64,000 bases of DNA from an uncultured Candidatus Berkelbacteria bacterium (GCA_903877885.1 CAIRFN010000007.1:111-64110); one strand, 5' to 3'; counted from the first letter of the stretch, positions 2,393 to 42,504 are shown. The notes: generated by a model from the letters alone, not told the origin. Made by a program: numbers and translations.

Positions 2393-5300
2393 TCAACAAA
2401 AAATTTATAACTGAATTTAAGAAACTCAATGACCATCAGCGCGAAGCGGTGGAAGCAATTGAAGGACCGGTGATGGTAATTGCCGGGCCCGGCACCGGCA
2501 AGACTCAAATCTTGGCTATGCGGATTGCCAATATTTTAAAAGAAGCTCAAGTTGATGCCGGCAATATTTTGTGTCTTACCTTTACCAACTCCGGTGTTTG
2601 GGCTATGCGAAAAAGACTACTAGAAATTATTGGTCCGGCCAGCTACAAAGTCCATGTCCACACATATCATTCTTTTTGCAATGAAGTCATCCAAACTTTT
2701 CCGGAAAAATTCCTATTTAGCCGCAATTTGGAACAAATTAACGACTTGGACCAAATTCTAACCATTAAAAAGATTTTAGATGAAAATAATTTTCAAAGAA
2801 TTAAAACCCTTAAAGCGCCGTATTATTATCAATCAGCCATCTTGCAATCAATTAATAGCTTAAAGCAAGAAAATATCAGCCCGCAGTTTTTTAAGAAAAT
2901 TGTTCAAAAAGAAATTAAGACCATCGATCAAATTGAAGATCTCTATCACGACAAAGGTCCGAATAAGGGCAAGATTAAGGCTAAGTATGTGGACCTGAAA
3001 GATCAATTGGAAAAAAACTTGGAGCTGGCCGAGGCTTACAAGCTCTATAATTTAGCACTTCAAAAAAACGGTCAATACGATTACGCCGATATGATCTTGT
3101 ACGTTGTTCGTGAACTAAGTAAAGACCAGGAACTTTTGAGTTATTATCAGGAAAAATTTCAGTATTTTTTAGTTGATGAATATCAAGACACCAACAGCGC
3201 TCAAAATGAAATCGTTCGGCTTTTATCTAGCTTCTACGATGAGCCAAACCTTTTTGTGGTTGGCGACGATGAGCAATCAATCTTTCGTTTTCAAGGCGCG
3301 GCCTTGGAAAACATTTTGGAGTTTATGAGCTTACATCCGAATGCTAAAAAGATTGTTTTAGAAGAAAACTATCGGTCGGGTCAACAGATTCTGGATGCAT
3401 CAAGAAGCCTGATTAAAAATAATCAAAAACAGATTTTCAGTGTTTTAAAGATCGATAAACATCTTGTTAGCACTAAAGCGATTGAGTCTAAAATCAACCT
3501 GGCTCAGTTTAGTTCCGATCAAACCGAAAATTTTTTCATTGCCAAGGAAATTAAAAAATTACTCAAGAAAAACATTGACCCAGCCGAAATCGCTTGTATC
3601 TACAAAGAACATCGCGATGCTACCGCTTTAGCCGAAACTTTAGCTAAAAGTAAAATTCCATACTCGCAAAACAATTCTGATAATATTTTGCTTGATCCAG
3701 ACACACAAAAGATTATCAACATGCTTAAAATCGTTGCAAATGCCGACACCGAACTTTTGTTTGAAATAATGCATTATCCTTTTTTTAAGCTTAATAAACT
3801 GGATATTTACCGACTGGCTAATTTGGCTTACAAAAACAAAACCAGTATTTTTAAAACAATGGTTGATCTTAAGAAAGAGGATTTGGCCCTGCCGGCAAAT
3901 CGTAAAAAAACTTTAACCAAATTCATTAACTTGATTTTGACTAGCTCGAGTAATTTTTCCAATCTGACTTTTGCCGCCGCTTTTGAGGTTTTGGTTAACT
4001 CGAGCGGCTATTTAAATTACTTACTTAAACTCCCGGACGCGCCGATTAAACTCAATCGCTTAAAATCACTCTTTGATGAAGTTAAAACCATTAACACTAA
4101 AAATGCCAATTTGAATCTCAAAGGTTTTTTAAACTACCTTAACGAGCTGGAAGAAAATAATTTGAAGATTATGGAACGACCGATGGAGGCGGATTTTCAT
4201 GGTGTTAAATTAATGACTGCTCACCAGGCGAAAGGTTTGGAGTTTGAATATGTTTTTATGATTCATTTAACCGATAATCATTGGGGTAACAAAACGGCTC
4301 GCAAATTAATTAAACTGCCGGCCGGTTTACTGAAAATTGAAAATGATACAGATGAAAACGACGAAGAAGAACGCCGCTTGTTTTATGTTGGTCTAACCCG
4401 GGCTAAAAAAGATATTTATCTAACTTATGCCGATATTTATAATGAAAGCGCAAGTCCGACACTGCCGAGCAAATTTTTATCTGAAATCGAGCCGAAATAT
4501 TTGACTGACTTAAATGTAACTAAATACGAACAAAACTTTGTCGAAAGATTAAAAATCGAGTTAAAACCAAGTCTGCTGGCGCCAGCCAAAGACCTCAAAA
4601 AATACTTGGCAGAACTAGCCGAAAAATTTGTTTTAAGTGCCACCAGTTTTAACGCCTATTTGGATTGTCCACAAAAGTTTTTCTATAATCAATTTTTGAA
4701 AGTGCCGAAATTAAAAGATTTTAATCTTGCCTATGGTTCGGCTGTTCACTACGGTCTGGAACTGTTTTTTAAAAAACAAAAACAGGATTTTGCCTTGCCC
4801 TCAAAGAAGTTTTTACTTAACCAATTTAAGGTTGGCCTAAAACGGGAAATTCTTTCACTGGCCGAGCTTAAAAGAGCCTTACATTTGGGACGGAAGGTTT
4901 TGAGTGAATACTATGATTTTTATGCCGCCGACTGGACTCGCCACATTCCGATTGCCGCCGAATATAATTTTAGCTATCACAATGTTCATTTTGGTCCAAT
5001 TCCAATTACCGGAAAAATCGACAAGATCGAGCTTCTTGATAAAATCGGTAAATCTGTCAAAATCGTTGATTACAAAACTACCACGGCCAAAAGTCAAAAC
5101 TATTTACTGGGGCTTACCAAAGACGAAGATTTGTCCTATTTATATCAAGCTTTCTTTTACAAACTTTTGGCCGAAAATGATCCGTTGTTTGACTGGGTCA
5201 TTGCCGAAGTCGAGTTTGATTTTATTTCTTCGGACAAAGGCAAATTTACTAAAGTCAGTATTCCGATTGACCAAGCGGCCTATGAAGAATTTAAAAAACA

Positions 5301-5406
5301 GGTTGGGACTACTTATCATGACATTTTGGATTTGAAATTTTCGCCTGATTTAACCGCTTGCGCTAAGAGTCGCTACAAATGCGATTTTGAAAACCTGTGC
5401 CATTAG
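2389..5406 (+). CDS. UvrD/PcrA-family SF1 helicase fused to a C-terminal RecB/AddB/Cas4-like PD-(D/E)XK nuclease with a Cys cluster.
   Basis: Helicase motifs: VIAGPGTGKT (Walker A), FLVDEYQDTN (II), VGDDEQSIFRFQGA (III), ENYRS (IV), TAHQAKGLEFEYVF (V) and GLTRAK (VI). C-terminus: IDKIEL...KIVDYKTT (D...E.K) plus a C...CAKSRYKCDFENLC cluster. Confidence 0.85.
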   Translation: MINKKFITEFKKLNDHQREAVEAIEGPVMVIAGPGTGKTQILAMRIANILKEAQVDAGNILCLTFTNSGVWAMRKRLLEIIGPASYKVHVHTYHSFCNEVIQTFPEKFLFSRNLEQINDLDQILTIKKILDENNFQRIKTLKAPYYYQSAILQSINSLKQENISPQFFKKIVQKEIKTIDQIEDLYHDKGPNKGKIKAKYVDLKDQLEKNLELAEAYKLYNLALQKNGQYDYADMILYVVRELSKDQELLSYYQEKFQYFLVDEYQDTNSAQNEIVRLLSSFYDEPNLFVVGDDEQSIFRFQGAALENILEFMSLHPNAKKIVLEENYRSGQQILDASRSLIKNNQKQIFSVLKIDKHLVSTKAIESKINLAQFSSDQTENFFIAKEIKKLLKKNIDPAEIACIYKEHRDATALAETLAKSKIPYSQNNSDNILLDPDTQKIINMLKIVANADTELLFEIMHYPFFKLNKLDIYRLANLAYKNKTSIFKTMVDLKKEDLALPANRKKTLTKFINLILTSSSNFSNLTFAAAFEVLVNSSGYLNYLLKLPDAPIKLNRLKSLFDEVKTINTKNANLNLKGFLNYLNELEENNLKIMERPMEADFHGVKLMTAHQAKGLEFEYVFMIHLTDNHWGNKTARKLIKLPAGLLKIENDTDENDEEERRLFYVGLTRAKKDIYLTYADIYNESASPTLPSKFLSEIEPKYLTDLNVTKYEQNFVERLKIELKPSLLAPAKDLKKYLAELAEKFVLSATSFNAYLDCPQKFFYNQFLKVPKLKDFNLAYGSAVHYGLELFFKKQKQDFALPSKKFLLNQFKVGLKREILSLAELKRALHLGRKVLSEYYDFYAADWTRHIPIAAEYNFSYHNVHFGPIPITGKIDKIELLDKIGKSVKIVDYKTTTAKSQNYLLGLTKDEDLSYLYQAFFYKLLAENDPLFDWVIAEVEFDFISSDKGKFTKVSIPIDQAAYEEFKKQVGTTYHDILDLKFSPDLTACAKSRYKCDFENLCH

Positions 5407-7643: not shown

Positions 7644-8100
7644 CAGAGAAATTGTTTCAGCCGTAATTATTTCGAAGGATAATAAAATCTTTATGGGTCG
7701 TAGTGGCGACCAACGCGGCCAGGTTTATTCTGATTGTTGGCGAATTCCTGGTGGTGGTGTTGAAGAAGGTGAGGATCAAATCACTGCCTTAGATCGAGAA
7801 ATGATTGAAGAAACAGGAATTGATACTACAAAATATAATAAAGAATTAATTACTGATCAAAAATTTGGAAATTGCGAAAAATGCCTAAGAACGACCGGCG
7901 AAAAAGTTTTAGTTCATATGCATTTCTTTGATTATAAAATCACAATTGGCGATAAAGACGCCGATGAGATTGTATTAAAGCCAGTTGACGATGAATTTGA
8001 TGAAATTAAATGGTTTACTCCAGATGAAATTAAAAAATTAAAACTTTCCCCACCATCAATCGAATTATTTGAAGAGATGGGGATTATTTCAGGAGAATAA
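7630..8100 (+). CDS. NUDIX hydrolase.
   Basis: Nudix box GGGVEEGEDQITALDREMIEETGI (GX5EX7REUXEEXGU). Confidence 0.8.
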   Translation: MREINREIVSAVIISKDNKIFMGRSGDQRGQVYSDCWRIPGGGVEEGEDQITALDREMIEETGIDTTKYNKELITDQKFGNCEKCLRTTGEKVLVHMHFFDYKITIGDKDADEIVLKPVDDEFDEIKWFTPDEIKKLKLSPPSIELFEEMGIISGE

Positions 8101-26501: not shown

Positions 26502-26530
26502 TTGACACTCATATAAGTTCCCTATATAAT
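26502..26530 (+). promoter_or_regulatory. Sigma-70-type promoter, exact consensus TTGACA-17-TATAAT.
   Basis: TTGACACTCATATAAGTTCCCTATATAAT, about 90 nt upstream of the 26621 ORF. Confidence 0.6.
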
Positions 26531-26620: not shown

Positions 26621-26986
26621 ATGATGCCTGAAACAACGTCGACTGAAACCAAAATTTCTGTGAATACATTTAGCGTCGGTAAGCTTAGTATCGACGTCGA
26701 TAAACAAATTTCTGAAAGCAAACCAATGAAGTTCGATTGGCCAGTAATAGAAATTGATCAAGCAAATCTAAGTCAGTTAGGATCAAAAGGTAAAAAAATC
26801 GTTTTAAAAGTTTTAGCTCTGGACGGAGTGTTAAGCATTACTATTAGTCGCTATCAAATCACGGTTTGTCTTGGAAATTTATTTAATAATAATACCGTCT
26901 ATGAAAACATTCTCCAGATAATCGAAGAAATCTTTCCTGATAGTTCGGTTATCGGCGCCGGTTGGCGACCACACGGTAGTATGTAA
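26621..26986 (+). CDS. Hypothetical protein, a stand-alone transcription unit.
   Basis: Consensus promoter at 26502-26530, RBS AAAGGAGA, and an intrinsic terminator at 27015-27044. Confidence 0.5.
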   Translation: MMPETTSTETKISVNTFSVGKLSIDVDKQISESKPMKFDWPVIEIDQANLSQLGSKGKKIVLKVLALDGVLSITISRYQITVCLGNLFNNNTVYENILQIIEEIFPDSSVIGAGWRPHGSM

Positions 26987-36417: not shown

Positions 36418-36484
36418 CCCGCGAAAAGACCCGTGAAGACATAAATTTATTTTTATTTCTTCATCCCGTCTTCGCGGGTTTTTT
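36418..36484 (+). terminator. Intrinsic terminator of cassette 1.
   Basis: CCCGCGAAAAGACCCGTGAAGAC...GTCTTCATCCCGTCTTCGCGGG then TTTTTT. Confidence 0.7.
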
Positions 36485-36508
36485 CGTATTTAAAAAATAC
36501 ACTTACTC

Positions 36509-36537
36509 TTGACAAATGACGGATTTTACCATATAAT
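36509..36537 (+). promoter_or_regulatory. Sigma-70-type promoter TTGACA-17-TATAAT for cassette 2.
   Basis: TTGACAAATGACGGATTTTACCATATAAT. Homologous to the cassette 1 promoter (CTCTTGAC...TGA.GGATTTT). Confidence 0.6.
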
Positions 36538-36566
36538 TGCTATATCAAAATCCAGAGGAGGACGTT

Positions 36567-36869
36567 ATGTCTTTACGACCATTTCACGAAACGATTGTGG
36601 ATGCCATTAAGCGATGCAAGCCCAGTCCATCTGCTGGCGAGATTCTTCATCTCCATCGATTGATTATGGACACCAAAATCCCGTCAAATCACGATGCAAT
36701 CCTGGAAGCGCTTCGCAAATATTGGGATTTCCCAGGATCCAGTAAATGGGGCCTCGAAATTCAGGACGTTGAAAAATCTCTGCGTGAGCAGAAGCAGAAA
36801 CATCTCGAAGAACAGGCTGAACACCAGCCGAAAATGACCGAAGAGGAAGACTACCGTCTGCGTCGATAA
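36567..36869 (+). CDS. Hypothetical ~100-aa protein in self-contained cassette 2.
   Basis: Consensus promoter TTGACA-17-TATAAT, AGGAGG RBS 6 nt before the ATG at 36567, and a terminator homologous to that of cassette 1. Confidence 0.5.
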   Translation: MSLRPFHETIVDAIKRCKPSPSAGEILHLHRLIMDTKIPSNHDAILEALRKYWDFPGSSKWGLEIQDVEKSLREQKQKHLEEQAEHQPKMTEEEDYRLRR

Positions 36870-36893
36870 AATATAACCAATAACCCGCGAAAG

Positions 36894-36930
36894 CGGCGGA
36901 AAAGCCCGCCCTCTAGTTCGCGGGTTTTTT
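36894..36930 (+). terminator. Intrinsic terminator of cassette 2, homologous to the cassette 1 terminator.
   Basis: CCCGCGAAAGCGGCGGAAAAGCCCGCCCTCTAGTTCGCGGG then TTTTTT. Shares its ends and 3' flank (TTTTTTCGTA.TTAAAAA) with the 36418 element. Confidence 0.7.
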
Positions 36931-37013
36931 CGTACTTAAAAATATAAAATTTATATCTTTTCATACCTTTCCATCCACCTCGTAGGTGGAACAATAGGTT
37001 TAGTAACCAGTTA

Positions 37014-40450: not shown

Positions 40451-41101
40451 TTAAAATATTTTACTGTCGCTCGGACCATGACTGGAAGATGATTTTGTTG
40501 AGGGTTTGGTCGAAGCATTTAAAGTCGGTGATGGCGCTGTTGGCACTGGAACTGGTGATAATGATAAAGTTGGAGTCGCCACTGGGGCCGGCTTTAAATA
40601 TTGGTAATTTGGACCGTAAATTACTTGCCAAGCGTTATTACTGCTGGCTGTAAAAATCAAATGATCCTGCATCGCCTTTTGCGCTTGCATTACCTGATCT
40701 TTAACTATGGTTGGACCAGATTTGGTTGCGCCTAAAACCGTCGTATGATGAACCAAATTTTCGGCAATAGTTTTATCATCAAAAACTTTTATATTGTAAG
40801 TGACAACTTGACCTTTGACTGGTTTGATTTTTTTGTTATTTTTGGCATCGCTCTTAACCCGATTAACTAAACTAGTAATTGTTTTAGCATTCGCATCAGA
40901 TTTAGCTAAATAAACAATCACCTCTGAACTGCCTTTGGTCGATACGATTTTGTATTTCTGAGTTAGCGCAATGAAACCAAAATAGCCGCCAATAATTAAG
41001 GCAACAATAATCAGACCAACCAAAAGCATTGGCACAAAACTTTTTTTGATTTGGCGCGGCATGATATGCGACGTTGACTGTGCTTGATTCATCGAGTTCA
41101 T
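40451..41101 (-). CDS. Membrane-anchored hypothetical protein with a Pro/Ser-rich C-terminus.
   Basis: A single TM helix near the N-terminus. No recognisable domain. Confidence 0.5.
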   Translation of the reverse strand: MNSMNQAQSTSHIMPRQIKKSFVPMLLVGLIIVALIIGGYFGFIALTQKYKIVSTKGSSEVIVYLAKSDANAKTITSLVNRVKSDAKNNKKIKPVKGQVVTYNIKVFDDKTIAENLVHHTTVLGATKSGPTIVKDQVMQAQKAMQDHLIFTASSNNAWQVIYGPNYQYLKPAPVATPTLSLSPVPVPTAPSPTLNASTKPSTKSSSSHGPSDSKIF

Positions 41102-41188
41102 ATTCCCCTCCGATATTTAAAATTACCCCTCCGGGACCACATATTAATCATACATATTAAATAAAAAGATGTAAAGACGGCCGCTCTA

Positions 41189-41217
41189 TTGACATTTTAG
41201 GTTTAATATGGTATAAT
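41189..41217 (+). promoter_or_regulatory. Sigma-70-type promoter, exact consensus TTGACA-17-TATAAT, driving a non-coding transcript.
   Basis: TTGACATTTTAGGTTTAATATGGTATAAT. No ORF follows before the terminator at 41413-41437. Confidence 0.55.
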
Positions 41218-41223
41218 AGTTTA

Positions 41224-41438
41224 ACAGAGTCGAAAGACCTGTATCAAGGTAAAAGGAAGAAATCTGGTTCGCCTACCCGTTTGTAGCGGATGTACTCAGG
41301 TTGGCCAGTTTCTCTCTGTTACCTTCACCCCAGTCTTGTACTTTAAAAAAAATTTGAGGCTGGTAAAATCCCGTAAGGGTGGTTGAGGTTCAAAGGAGAG
41401 GATAAACAAAAAGGAACTGCGCAAGCGGTTCCTTTTTG
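41224..41438 (+). ncRNA. Candidate small non-coding RNA (~215 nt) of unknown class.
   Basis: Lies between a perfect consensus promoter and an intrinsic terminator (GGAACUGC-GCAA-GCGGUUCC followed by UUUUU). No ORF over 30 codons. Located between convergent/tandem minus-strand genes. Confidence 0.35.
41413..41437. terminator. Bidirectional intrinsic terminator (ends the candidate ncRNA; also usable for yrdC on the minus strand).
   Basis: GGAACTGC-GCAA-GCGGTTCC with a GNRA loop, A5 upstream and T5 downstream. Confidence 0.65.
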
Positions 41439-41456
41439 TGTATAAAATAATTTTAA

Positions 41457-42026
41457 TTACCGAATGTCTTTTTTGAGGTCTAAATGATAAATTGAGCTCG
41501 GAGTGCCTTTGAGTTTTTCATTAGTTTCGATGGTTAGATCGGCTTCTTTTTTGATTTGATCTGAAACCTCAGCAAAATTGGCAGGAGTAGGCTCGCCTTT
41601 TTTATTGGCTGAAGTGGTCACAATTGGACCAACTTCGTCAATGAGCTTAGAAAGCCACGCATGATTTGGCAGTCGAATGCCAATCGTATTGTCTTCGGCC
41701 ACAATCATTTTGGGAAATTCAATGGCGTAATTTACAATATCATCGATAATCGTTAATTCGCCAGAATAGAATTTCTGATCTAATTTTAAGTCCAAAACCA
41801 AATCACTGTTTCTTTTACCATCAAAAACATTGCGACTCATTAAAACTGCAGTTGGTTGAGTCGCCGGCCGATTTTTAATTTTGTAAAGTTTGCGAATCGC
41901 TGTTTTATTTAAAATACAACCAATCCCATAAACCGTATCGGTAGGCATTACCAAAACACCACCAGAAGTTAAAACTTCGGTGGCGTTTTTTAGACTATCT
42001 TTTGATTTAATATCGATGATATTCAT
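41457..42026 (-). CDS. tsaC: L-threonylcarbamoyladenylate synthase (YrdC/Sua5/TsaC family).
   Basis: VLVMPTDTVYGIGC motif; about 190 aa YrdC domain only. Confidence 0.8.
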   Translation of the reverse strand: MNIIDIKSKDSLKNATEVLTSGGVLVMPTDTVYGIGCILNKTAIRKLYKIKNRPATQPTAVLMSRNVFDGKRNSDLVLDLKLDQKFYSGELTIIDDIVNYAIEFPKMIVAEDNTIGIRLPNHAWLSKLIDEVGPIVTTSANKKGEPTPANFAEVSDQIKKEADLTIETNEKLKGTPSSIYHLDLKKDIR

Positions 42027-42033
42027 AGTGAAT

Positions 42034-42086
42034 TATTGCGATGGAATACAGAGCAACAAGGTTCTGCCGCAAGGCAGGTTCTTACT
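42034..42086. repeat. Repeat C copy 1 (about 52 bp).
   Basis: ATTGCGATGGAATACAGAGCAACAAGGTTCTGCCGCAAGGCAGGTTCTTAC, downstream of the rplK stop. Contains CTGCC-GCAA-GGCAG (a GNRA-loop hairpin). Confidence 0.7.
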
Positions 42087-42504
42087 TAACTTCAATCCCC
42101 ATGCTTTTGCAGGTTCCGCGAACGATTTCTTTAGCTGACTCTAGTTCAAAAGCATTGGTATCTTGCATTTTTTGTTTGGCAATTTCTTCAACTTGAGCTT
42201 CGGTGATTTTGCCAACTTTTTCACGATTCGGCACGCCTGAACCTTTAGCCACACCAGCCGCTTTCATAATGAGGTTAGCCATTGGTGGCTGTTTCATAAT
42301 GAAATCAAAAGTACGATCTTCATAAACAGTGATTTCGACCGGAATAACAGTGTCGCCCATGGAACGGGTCGCTTCATTGAATTTGTTTACAAAGTCCATG
42401 ATGTTTAAACCATGTTGACCCAAAGCTGGACCAATTGGAGGCGCTGGATTAGCTTTTCCGGCTGGAGCTTGTAATTTGATGATTGTTTTAATTTTCTTTG
42501 CCAT
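42082..42504 (-). CDS. rplK: 50S ribosomal protein L11.
   Basis: MAKKI...[23 protein letters not shown] signature. Confidence 0.9.

Follow-up and report, generated by a model that had tools for sequence, protein, structure and literature searches.

Orphan structured RNA motifs of the Breaker/Weinberg type, among them raiA, Chlorobi-1 and Bacteroidales-1, are free-standing genes with their own promoter and intrinsic terminator; they have a multi-stem fold supported by covariation, are found in one lineage and carry no assigned function. We found a locus that is alike in all of these respects in a 64,000-nucleotide (nt) stretch of DNA from an uncultured Candidatus Berkelbacteria bacterium (GCA_903877885.1, CAIRFN010000007.1:111-64110; this whole stretch is called the window below). 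Positions 41224 to 41438 of its plus strand very probably represent a real, conserved, structured and stand-alone small RNA (sRNA) gene of a new family. As far as searched, this family appears to be confined to a clade of the Patescibacteria (Candidate Phyla Radiation, CPR) that includes the metagenome-assembled genome (MAG) labelled Candidatus Berkelbacteria. It is new as a family, having no Rfam match, and in kind it is a lineage-restricted orphan structured sRNA.

The locus has what is generally expected of a stand-alone sRNA, namely its own promoter, its own Rho-independent terminator and no coding capacity. The signals read as follows:

41189-41194, plus strand: -35 hexamer TTGACA (direct reading and consensus scanner)
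41209-41217, plus strand: extended -10 element TGgTATAAT, with TG at 41209-41210 and TATAAT at 41212-41217, after a 17-nt spacer
41224-41438, plus strand: predicted transcript of ~215 nt, its start placed by the promoter (A at 41223/41224) and its end by the U-run
41406-41439, plus strand: intrinsic terminator, bidirectional (-23 kcal/mol, z = -7.1)
41413-41432, plus strand: G+C core of the terminator with a GCAA loop; 5' stem strand GGAACUGC at 41413-41420, loop at 41421-41424
41425-41432, plus strand: 3' stem strand GCGGUUCC of the terminator, followed by U5 at 41433-41437

An earlier note on this DNA had proposed a noncoding RNA of about 215 nt between an isolated TTGACA-17-TATAAT promoter (41189-41217) and a strong terminator with a GNRA loop and T-run (41413-41437). 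Both signals hold up, and the promoter additionally has an extended -10. The exact TTGACA-N17-TATAAT pattern occurs three times in the window, against 0.02 copies expected from shuffles, and the other two each drive a small protein gene that has an ordinary ribosome-binding site; such matches thus behave as real promoters in this genome. A and U runs on both flanks lengthen the terminator stem to 15 base pairs (bp) across 41406-41439 (13-15 bp are quoted below). The consensus scanner omitted this terminator from its list, probably since the T tail becomes part of the stem once the A and U runs are paired. The same A/U symmetry makes the hairpin bidirectional, so that it can also terminate the convergent gene tsaC, whose stop codon lies at 41457-41459, with the terminator 17 nt beyond it. 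This sharing of the terminator with tsaC escaped the earlier note, as did the fact that only the 3' ~130 nt (41309-41439), and not the whole 215 nt, form the conserved core. The plus strand of 41224-41438 folds at -74.2 kcal/mol, with z = -4.56 against shuffles (opposite strand, z = -3.44).

About 31 distinct homologues came to light in Patescibacteria contigs from metagenomes and MAGs, the taxonomic labels being only 'Patescibacteria group bacterium' and, for one MAG, 'Candidatus Berkelbacteria bacterium'. Three routes led to them. A TsaC scan of a genome collection gave a sole useful relative, a Patescibacteria MAG (L001) with a TsaC 45% identical to that of the window, in whose tsaC-dprA spacer a TTGACA-17-TATCAT promoter, a stretch of recognisable homology and a terminator lie on the opposite strand. 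A TsaC protein search with contig look-up added eleven further loci of identical gene order, ileS-ftsW-rplU-secE-nusG-rplK-tsaC-[0-2 variable genes]-dprA-topA-recR-cysS, and the element was seen in their spacers; the contig of one locus (L051) stops short of the RNA position. A synteny-blind scan of metagenomes with a degenerate DNA pattern, built from the conserved parts and fixing parts of the P2 loop and of the purine strand described below, returned 30 matches, 29 genuine ones and a single chance match within other sequence (L043). Among viral contigs the pattern gave one chance match only, which has no covariance-model support. With the covariance model R1, each locus yields a single copy scoring 88-133 bits, the next best match reaching at most 19 bits; the model also recovered two homologues that the pattern had missed, including L050 with a TsaC of 42% identity.

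The promoter is present in all 26 homologues with enough upstream sequence, as TTGAC(A/T) with a 17-nt spacer (16 in one) and TGn plus a TATAAT-like -10, scoring 11-13 of 13. Given this consensus extended -10 promoter in every genome, transcription is probably strong and constitutive. Each homologue also keeps its own terminator, including the loci without an adjacent tsaC. Wherever the flanks are visible in a tblastn map, the element stands between (rplK-)tsaC and dprA-topA, always on the opposite strand. Other genes separate it from tsaC in six loci (L003, L005, L015, L025, L030, L044), and tsaC is absent in L031/L038.

The conserved core folds as a three-way junction of ~105 nt, followed by the terminator. 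This consensus comes from alignment A1, which holds 28 distinct cores in 174 columns and was analysed with RNAalifold and explicit pair counting. The junction comprises the following parts:

41309-41322, plus strand: pyrimidine tract UUUCUCUCUGUUAC, 5' strand of P1a and alternatively 3' strand of P0 (A1 columns 2-15)
41311-41320 paired with 41392-41401, plus strand: helix P1a, with C-G/U-G exchange only
41323-41329, plus strand: 5' strand of P1b, CUUCACC (A1 columns 17-23), paired with 41381-41388
41330-41363, plus strand: P2 hairpin, stem CCAGUCU/AGGCUGG (41330-41336 / 41357-41363) with a 20-nt loop
41337-41347, plus strand: P2 loop motif U-GUAC-W-UUAAA, the first 11 loop positions
41364-41369, plus strand: J2/3 linker UAAAAU of 6 nt, consensus nnA(A/G)AU with one invariant A
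41370-41379, plus strand: P3 hairpin CCC-GUAA-GGG, elsewhere replaced by hairpins that differ in length and sequence and mostly carry UUCG or GNRA loops
41381-41388, plus strand: 3' strand of P1b, GGUUGAGG (pair counting)
41392-41402, plus strand: Shine-Dalgarno (SD)-like purine strand AAAGGAGAGGA, 3' strand of P1a, with seven positions invariant in 28 sequences

In A1, 95.1% of the cells fall into standard pairs, compared with 43-66% when the partners are slid by 1-3 columns. Changes on both sides of a pair (compensatory changes) occur at 19 of the 33 pairs. Out of 500 shuffles, not one came up to the alignment on any of the five measures. With ~31 homologues that have a conserved promoter and terminator and a covarying structure, the earlier note's proposal of a stand-alone RNA that is not a leader has gained strong comparative support. 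The signal is spread over the fold: all six pairs of P1b show compensatory changes (for example U-A 11 versus C-G 11), as do three of the seven pairs of P2, where 100% of the cells are paired (C-G/U-A; A-U/G-C, with A-U 22 versus G-C 6; and C-G/U-G/U-A/G-U), and 9 of 10 pairs of the terminator stem. In P1 the pyrimidine tract is paired with the almost invariant, SD-like GUAAAGGAGAGGA. The pyrimidine strand of P1a alternates between UCUCUCU and CUUUCCU while the purine strand is near-constant and the pairing is kept. Read from the opposite strand, the many U-G pairs of P1a would turn into A.C mismatches; these pairs and the orientation of promoter and terminator together identify the plus strand as the functional one. 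A K-turn in the internal loop of P1 was considered and rejected, tandem G.A pairs being absent.

The spacer could in principle hold no RNA gene at all. The hairpin, bidirectional and only 17 nt past the tsaC stop, would then be the tsaC terminator, the promoter would be fortuitous or belong to a divergent gene, and the spacer would be plain intergenic DNA or a small-protein gene, for which short open reading frames (ORFs) on both strands could speak. The neighbouring genes and one mechanically listed frame are:

40451-41101, minus strand: membrane protein of 216 amino acids (aa), flanking gene
41457-42026, minus strand: tsaC (Sua5-YrdC), flanking gene on the other side
41296-41424, minus strand: 42-aa ORF with a TTG start from a mechanical ORF list, unconserved and entirely inside the RNA gene

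As the earlier note had it, the element lies between two minus-strand genes and the plus strand has no meaningful ORF between the signals: none of 25 aa or more exists between 41220 and 41440. An 18-codon plus-strand ORF at 41291-41347 is unconserved, and L001 has a different frame there, without a start codon. Read from the loop complement, an opposite-strand ORF would open with ATG TAC AAG...; this ATG is missing from the window, and in L003 the third codon is a stop. In none of the homologues does a start codon follow the SD-like purine strand, and in many a UAA comes directly after it. Indels among the homologues shift the reading frames of the short ORFs. We therefore reject the small-protein reading, the ORFs being unconserved, their frames shifted and their start codons missing in homologues. 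Promoter, core and terminator moreover travel together in ~31 homologues, including loci where tsaC is separated or absent, and compensatory changes and G-U pairs fix a plus-strand RNA structure. The reading without an RNA gene is contradicted by these comparative data, and we leave it next to no probability.

A conserved sRNA gene of this kind might still be a divergent member of a known family. A single copy at a fixed position, a strong constitutive-type promoter and a length of ~200 nt in a reduced genome are what one would expect of a housekeeping RNA such as 6S or signal recognition particle (SRP) RNA, and the 6S family is notoriously divergent in sequence. The comparison with Rfam 15 (4227 models) gave no match at gathering score over the whole window. 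At relaxed thresholds (E <= 10 over 41050-41520 and E <= 5 over nine homologous loci), there were sub-threshold matches only, mostly to the terminator hairpin; they include BSnc120, STnc350, sraA and CsrC, and among them is no 6S, SRP, transfer-messenger RNA (tmRNA), RNase P, riboswitch or leader family. ARAGORN predicted neither tRNA nor tmRNA in the window. The earlier note's statement that no other RNA genes are visible in the window is thus in line with both searches, while of its candidates the lineage-specific sRNA stands and both 6S RNA and long-form SRP RNA fall, having no Rfam match and the wrong architecture; the models for 6S, bacterial SRP, tmRNA and RNase P likewise gave no match. 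Searches of full-text literature turned up no description of such an RNA.

Individually, 6S RNA (RF00013 and related models) was rejected because it has no model match and because the fold is a three-way junction instead of the 6S rod, which has a closing stem, a large central bubble and a terminal stem; L015 and L040 lack any 5' partner for such a rod. SRP RNA has no model match either, and A1 contains no conserved GNAR-capped helix 8 with the SRP loops. For tmRNA and RNase P RNA there is no Rfam match, and ARAGORN reports zero genes. The CsrB/Rsm family (clan CL00106) was also discarded: CsrC and RsmY score 15-23 bits in two homologous loci, compared with gathering scores of 57-61. With no covariance-model match in the window or in the nine homologous loci, a junction fold and minimal homologues of ~150 nt, a divergent 6S or SRP RNA is very improbable.

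Two parts of the new RNA are constrained in sequence, the P2 loop and the purine strand. In 28 sequences the loop motif is invariant apart from its A/U (W) position. The homologues found through synteny, for which the pattern was not used, agree with the invariance of both parts, with slight variants in L011 (AAAGUGAGGA) and L049 (a 2-nt deletion). The UGUACA of the loop and the UUAA that follows are palindromic. The purine strand resembles the genome's own ribosome-binding sites, AAAGGAG, AGGAGG and AAGGA being the prevailing motifs ahead of long ORFs in the window.

Such a loop invites comparison with the seed of an antisense sRNA, in which UUGUACAUUAAA would recognise a conserved mRNA segment, UUUAAUGUACAA, that contains an AUG start. 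The anatomy would be classic, from the gene's own promoter and the folded body to an unpaired, conserved stretch and the Rho-independent terminator, and the AUG of the loop complement has the kind of U/A-rich surroundings that start regions typically show. In the 64-kb window, however, UUUAAUGUACAA has 13 matches with up to two mismatches where 16 are expected, and a seed model leaves the invariance of the purine strand inside P1 unexplained. Chaperones of the Hfq or ProQ type are not known from reduced CPR genomes. We regard the antisense reading as possible, though rather unlikely.

Mimicry of ribosomal RNA was considered for the same region and for the junction as a whole. The loop plus stem, GCCUUGUACA, resembles 16S rRNA at positions ~1388-1397; the idea was rejected as weak, since the GCC part covaries with its P2 partner and only UUGUACA (7 nt) is truly conserved. 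The three-way junction of 23S rRNA that binds L11 (GTPase-associated centre, GAC) was considered for its similar topology and the proximity of rplK, as a candidate only; presumably there is no sequence correspondence with the conserved GAC residues.

Upstream of the core, the homologues carry a 5' extension of 0 to ~130 nt; outside L015 and L040 it amounts to 40-130 nt of poorly conserved hairpins. That of the window measures 85 nt and has two of them:

41224-41242, plus strand: 5' hairpin ACAGAGUC-GAAA-GACCUGU in the variable extension
41246-41325, plus strand: P0, a long imperfect hairpin with the pyrimidine tract as its 3' strand (constrained folds)

The first hairpin is kept in the closest homologue, L023, where a C-to-U change gives a U-G pair, and is absent in most others. 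The second points to a possible alternative state. In most homologues the extension holds a purine tract (for example GUAAUAGGAAGGAA in L017) that can pair with the pyrimidine tract plus the adjacent AUUAC, giving helix P0. In constrained folds P0 excludes P1a and leaves P1b, P2 and P3 intact, and the terminator is intact in both states. For the window these folds reach -75.7 kcal/mol in the P1 state and -73.7 kcal/mol in the P0 state, and for the 25 homologues whose extension could be placed with confidence, the energy of P0 minus that of P1 ranges from -6.8 to +2.8 kcal/mol, which makes the two states roughly equal in predicted energy. The two homologues without an extension (L015, L040), whose transcripts would start directly at the pyrimidine tract and whose minimal RNAs measure ~150 nt including the terminator, show a P0/P1 difference of +9 to +10 kcal/mol. 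P0 partners covary, with A-U, G-C, C-G and G-U at tract column 11 and U-A and A-U at column 12, where the partners were taken from single-sequence folds, which favour pairing. The complementarity of the extension to the tract averages -11.1 kcal/mol compared with -5.7 kcal/mol for shuffled extensions, and in 15 of the 25 homologues it is matched by at most 5 of 200 shuffles. Taken together, the support for P0 across homologues appears moderate.

A junction of P1, P2 and P3 with an alternative pairing of P1 and an immediate terminator resembles transcriptional riboswitches, and the element could accordingly be read as a cis-acting riboswitch or attenuator, with the junction as sensor, P0/P1 as switch and a terminator that gates read-through into a same-strand gene or, as antisense, into tsaC-rplK-nusG. 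Same-strand genes do follow in two kinds of loci: in L005 a VTT/DedA-family gene starts ~30 nt past the terminator, and in L030 a 199-aa ORF starts ~60 nt past it. Read-through would, at most loci, run antisense into tsaC, and antisense RNAs under riboswitch control are known from Listeria (B12/AspocR) and Clostridium acetobutylicum (S-box). Yet the window and most loci have no gene on the same strand past the terminator; only L005-type loci and L030 have one, and these two genes belong to unrelated families. Nor is a conserved antiterminator apparent: once free, the purine strand can pair over only ~6 bp with the 3' half of the terminator, against 13-15 bp in the terminator itself, and an antiterminator of this composition was rejected. 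The P0 strand is wholly missing in two homologues, and the invariant part is a 12-nt hairpin loop and not a junction pocket. We give cis control little probability.

The reading we prefer is an sRNA that would be made constitutively and abundantly and would act in trans. That genomes of under 1 Mb keep one copy, always in the same place, points to a core rather than an accessory role. The constraint on loop and purine strand exceeds what pairing needs, which suggests that both may be read by another conserved macromolecule. As the purine strand looks like the organism's ribosome-binding sites, a plausible partner would be either a protein that binds SD or GGA sequences or the 16S rRNA through its anti-SD. 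Whether this strand is exposed could depend on the choice between P0 and P1, and the palindromic loop (UGUACA, UUAA) would permit loop-loop dimerisation. We hold it at close to an even chance, though somewhat short of it, that the RNA is a protein-binding or housekeeping ribonucleoprotein (RNP) component or a titrating RNA, including one whose SD-like strand would engage the anti-SD of the 30S subunit. A more specific version, offered tentatively and unlikely to be right in full, is a new RNP or regulator of this CPR lineage in which the closing helix forms an internal duplex of the SD:anti-SD type, made bistable by P0, so that the SD mimic AAAGGAGAGGA would be conditionally exposed to the 30S anti-SD or to some other conserved partner. 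The invariant loop, partly palindromic (UGUACA/UUAA), would meanwhile bind a protein or mediate dimerisation. If true, this would be a ribosome- or translation-directed sRNA of a kind not described so far. Functions other than those of an RNP or titrating RNA, antisense pairing or cis control take what probability remains.

Several observations weigh against our explanation of the locus. The transcript, both its ends and its abundance are read from sequence signals, and the functions named above are proposals throughout. P1a draws its support from one-sided C/U changes, with no double compensatory changes. The apparent invariance of loop and purine strand arises in part because the scan pattern fixed those parts. 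In the window, P0 is weak as a duplex (-9.2 kcal/mol, with -8.4 for shuffles), and this weakness together with the absence of P0 from L015 and L040 means that it cannot be essential to the core function. As to a target for the loop, UUUAAUGUACAA has no match better than chance in the 64-kb window, and in 443 kb of related loci it occurs only in the RNA gene itself and in the chance match L043. Finally, the fixed position may reflect only the low rearrangement rate of small genomes.

The genes around the RNA show some features of their own. In this lineage rplK (L11) is followed by tsaC instead of rplA-rplJ-rplL (window 42082-42504, and all related loci), and the secE-nusG-rplK cluster is fused to tsaC-dprA-topA-recR-cysS, a synteny that is very stable even at ~40-45% TsaC identity. 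The database entry for the window's TsaC (P0001) is a truncated call of 163 aa, the full protein measuring 189 aa (P0088). In L008, nusG appears as two ORFs (94 + 120 aa, 4654-5322), which is probably an assembly or frameshift error, the near-identical L009 having one 231-aa gene (4627-5322). Directly after the RNA terminator, L003 carries three tandem units of ~33 nt, GGAATTTCAGTACTC(C)GAAATATACGAAGAAAC (7880-7960, minus strand), which no other locus has. Two loci have an extra consensus promoter on the strand of the RNA, in the interval from dprA to the RNA gene: TTGACAAAGAATGAAATTTATGCTATAAT in L013 (6847-7150, minus strand) and TTGACAAAGAGGAAAATTTATGTTATACT in L015 (8679-9240, minus strand), each followed by small ORFs of 67-80 aa without Pfam match and by an own terminator; this extra unit is a small insertion upstream of the RNA.

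Elsewhere in the window, a second perfect TTGACA-17-TATAAT promoter (36509-36537) drives a plus-strand ORF of ~100 aa, with ATG at 36568, SD AGAGGAGGA and stop at 36867-36869, downstream of topA; in related loci topA is followed directly by recR. This ORF is bracketed by near-identical terminator-like repeats (...CGCGGGTTTTTTCGTAtTTAAAAAATA at ~36471-36499 and ...CGCGGGTTTTTTCGTAcTTAAAAATATA at ~36920-36947), and the unit at 36456-36950 looks like an inserted cassette. A 121-aa ORF (26621-26986) with SD AAAGGAGAACGG follows ~85 nt downstream of the third perfect match to the promoter consensus (26502-26530).

CPR genomes are tiny and their bearers mostly uncultivated, and their repertoire of noncoding RNAs is almost unexplored. 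A single-copy RNA gene with a consensus promoter, a covarying fold and a fixed position, in genomes that share TsaC proteins of 40-50% identity and are shorn of most non-essential functions, is a candidate for a lineage-specific core function. Its ~105-nt core offers a small and concrete target for probing, pull-down and metatranscriptomics. An Rfam entry would improve the annotation of MAGs, for example by averting the calling of the 42-aa minus-strand ORF at 41296-41424 as a gene.

Set beside the described systems, the new RNA shares traits with several and coincides with none. With 6S RNA (ssrS) it has in common the size of ~215 nt (in the window), the strong, constitutive-looking promoter, the single copy and the lack of coding capacity, but 6S RNA is a long rod with a central bubble, whereas here a ~105-nt three-way junction forms the body and minimal homologues reach ~150 nt. 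Like the titrating sRNAs CsrB, RsmY and RsmZ it has purine-rich GGA mimics of the SD (AAAGGAGAGGA, and AGGAAGGA in P0); those RNAs display many GGA motifs in hairpin loops, while this one has only two or three, inside helices. Three-way-junction riboswitches such as the purine riboswitch, and riboswitch-controlled antisense RNAs, resemble it in the P1-P2-P3 arrangement, the competing P1 pairing and the terminator directly 3' of P1, and differ from it in that the new RNA has no consistent downstream gene and no recognisable antiterminator and keeps its invariant residues in a hairpin loop. From the orphan motifs named at the outset, it is set apart by its occurrence in uncultivated Patescibacteria, by its strictly fixed genomic position and by the invariant, SD-like strand in its closing helix.

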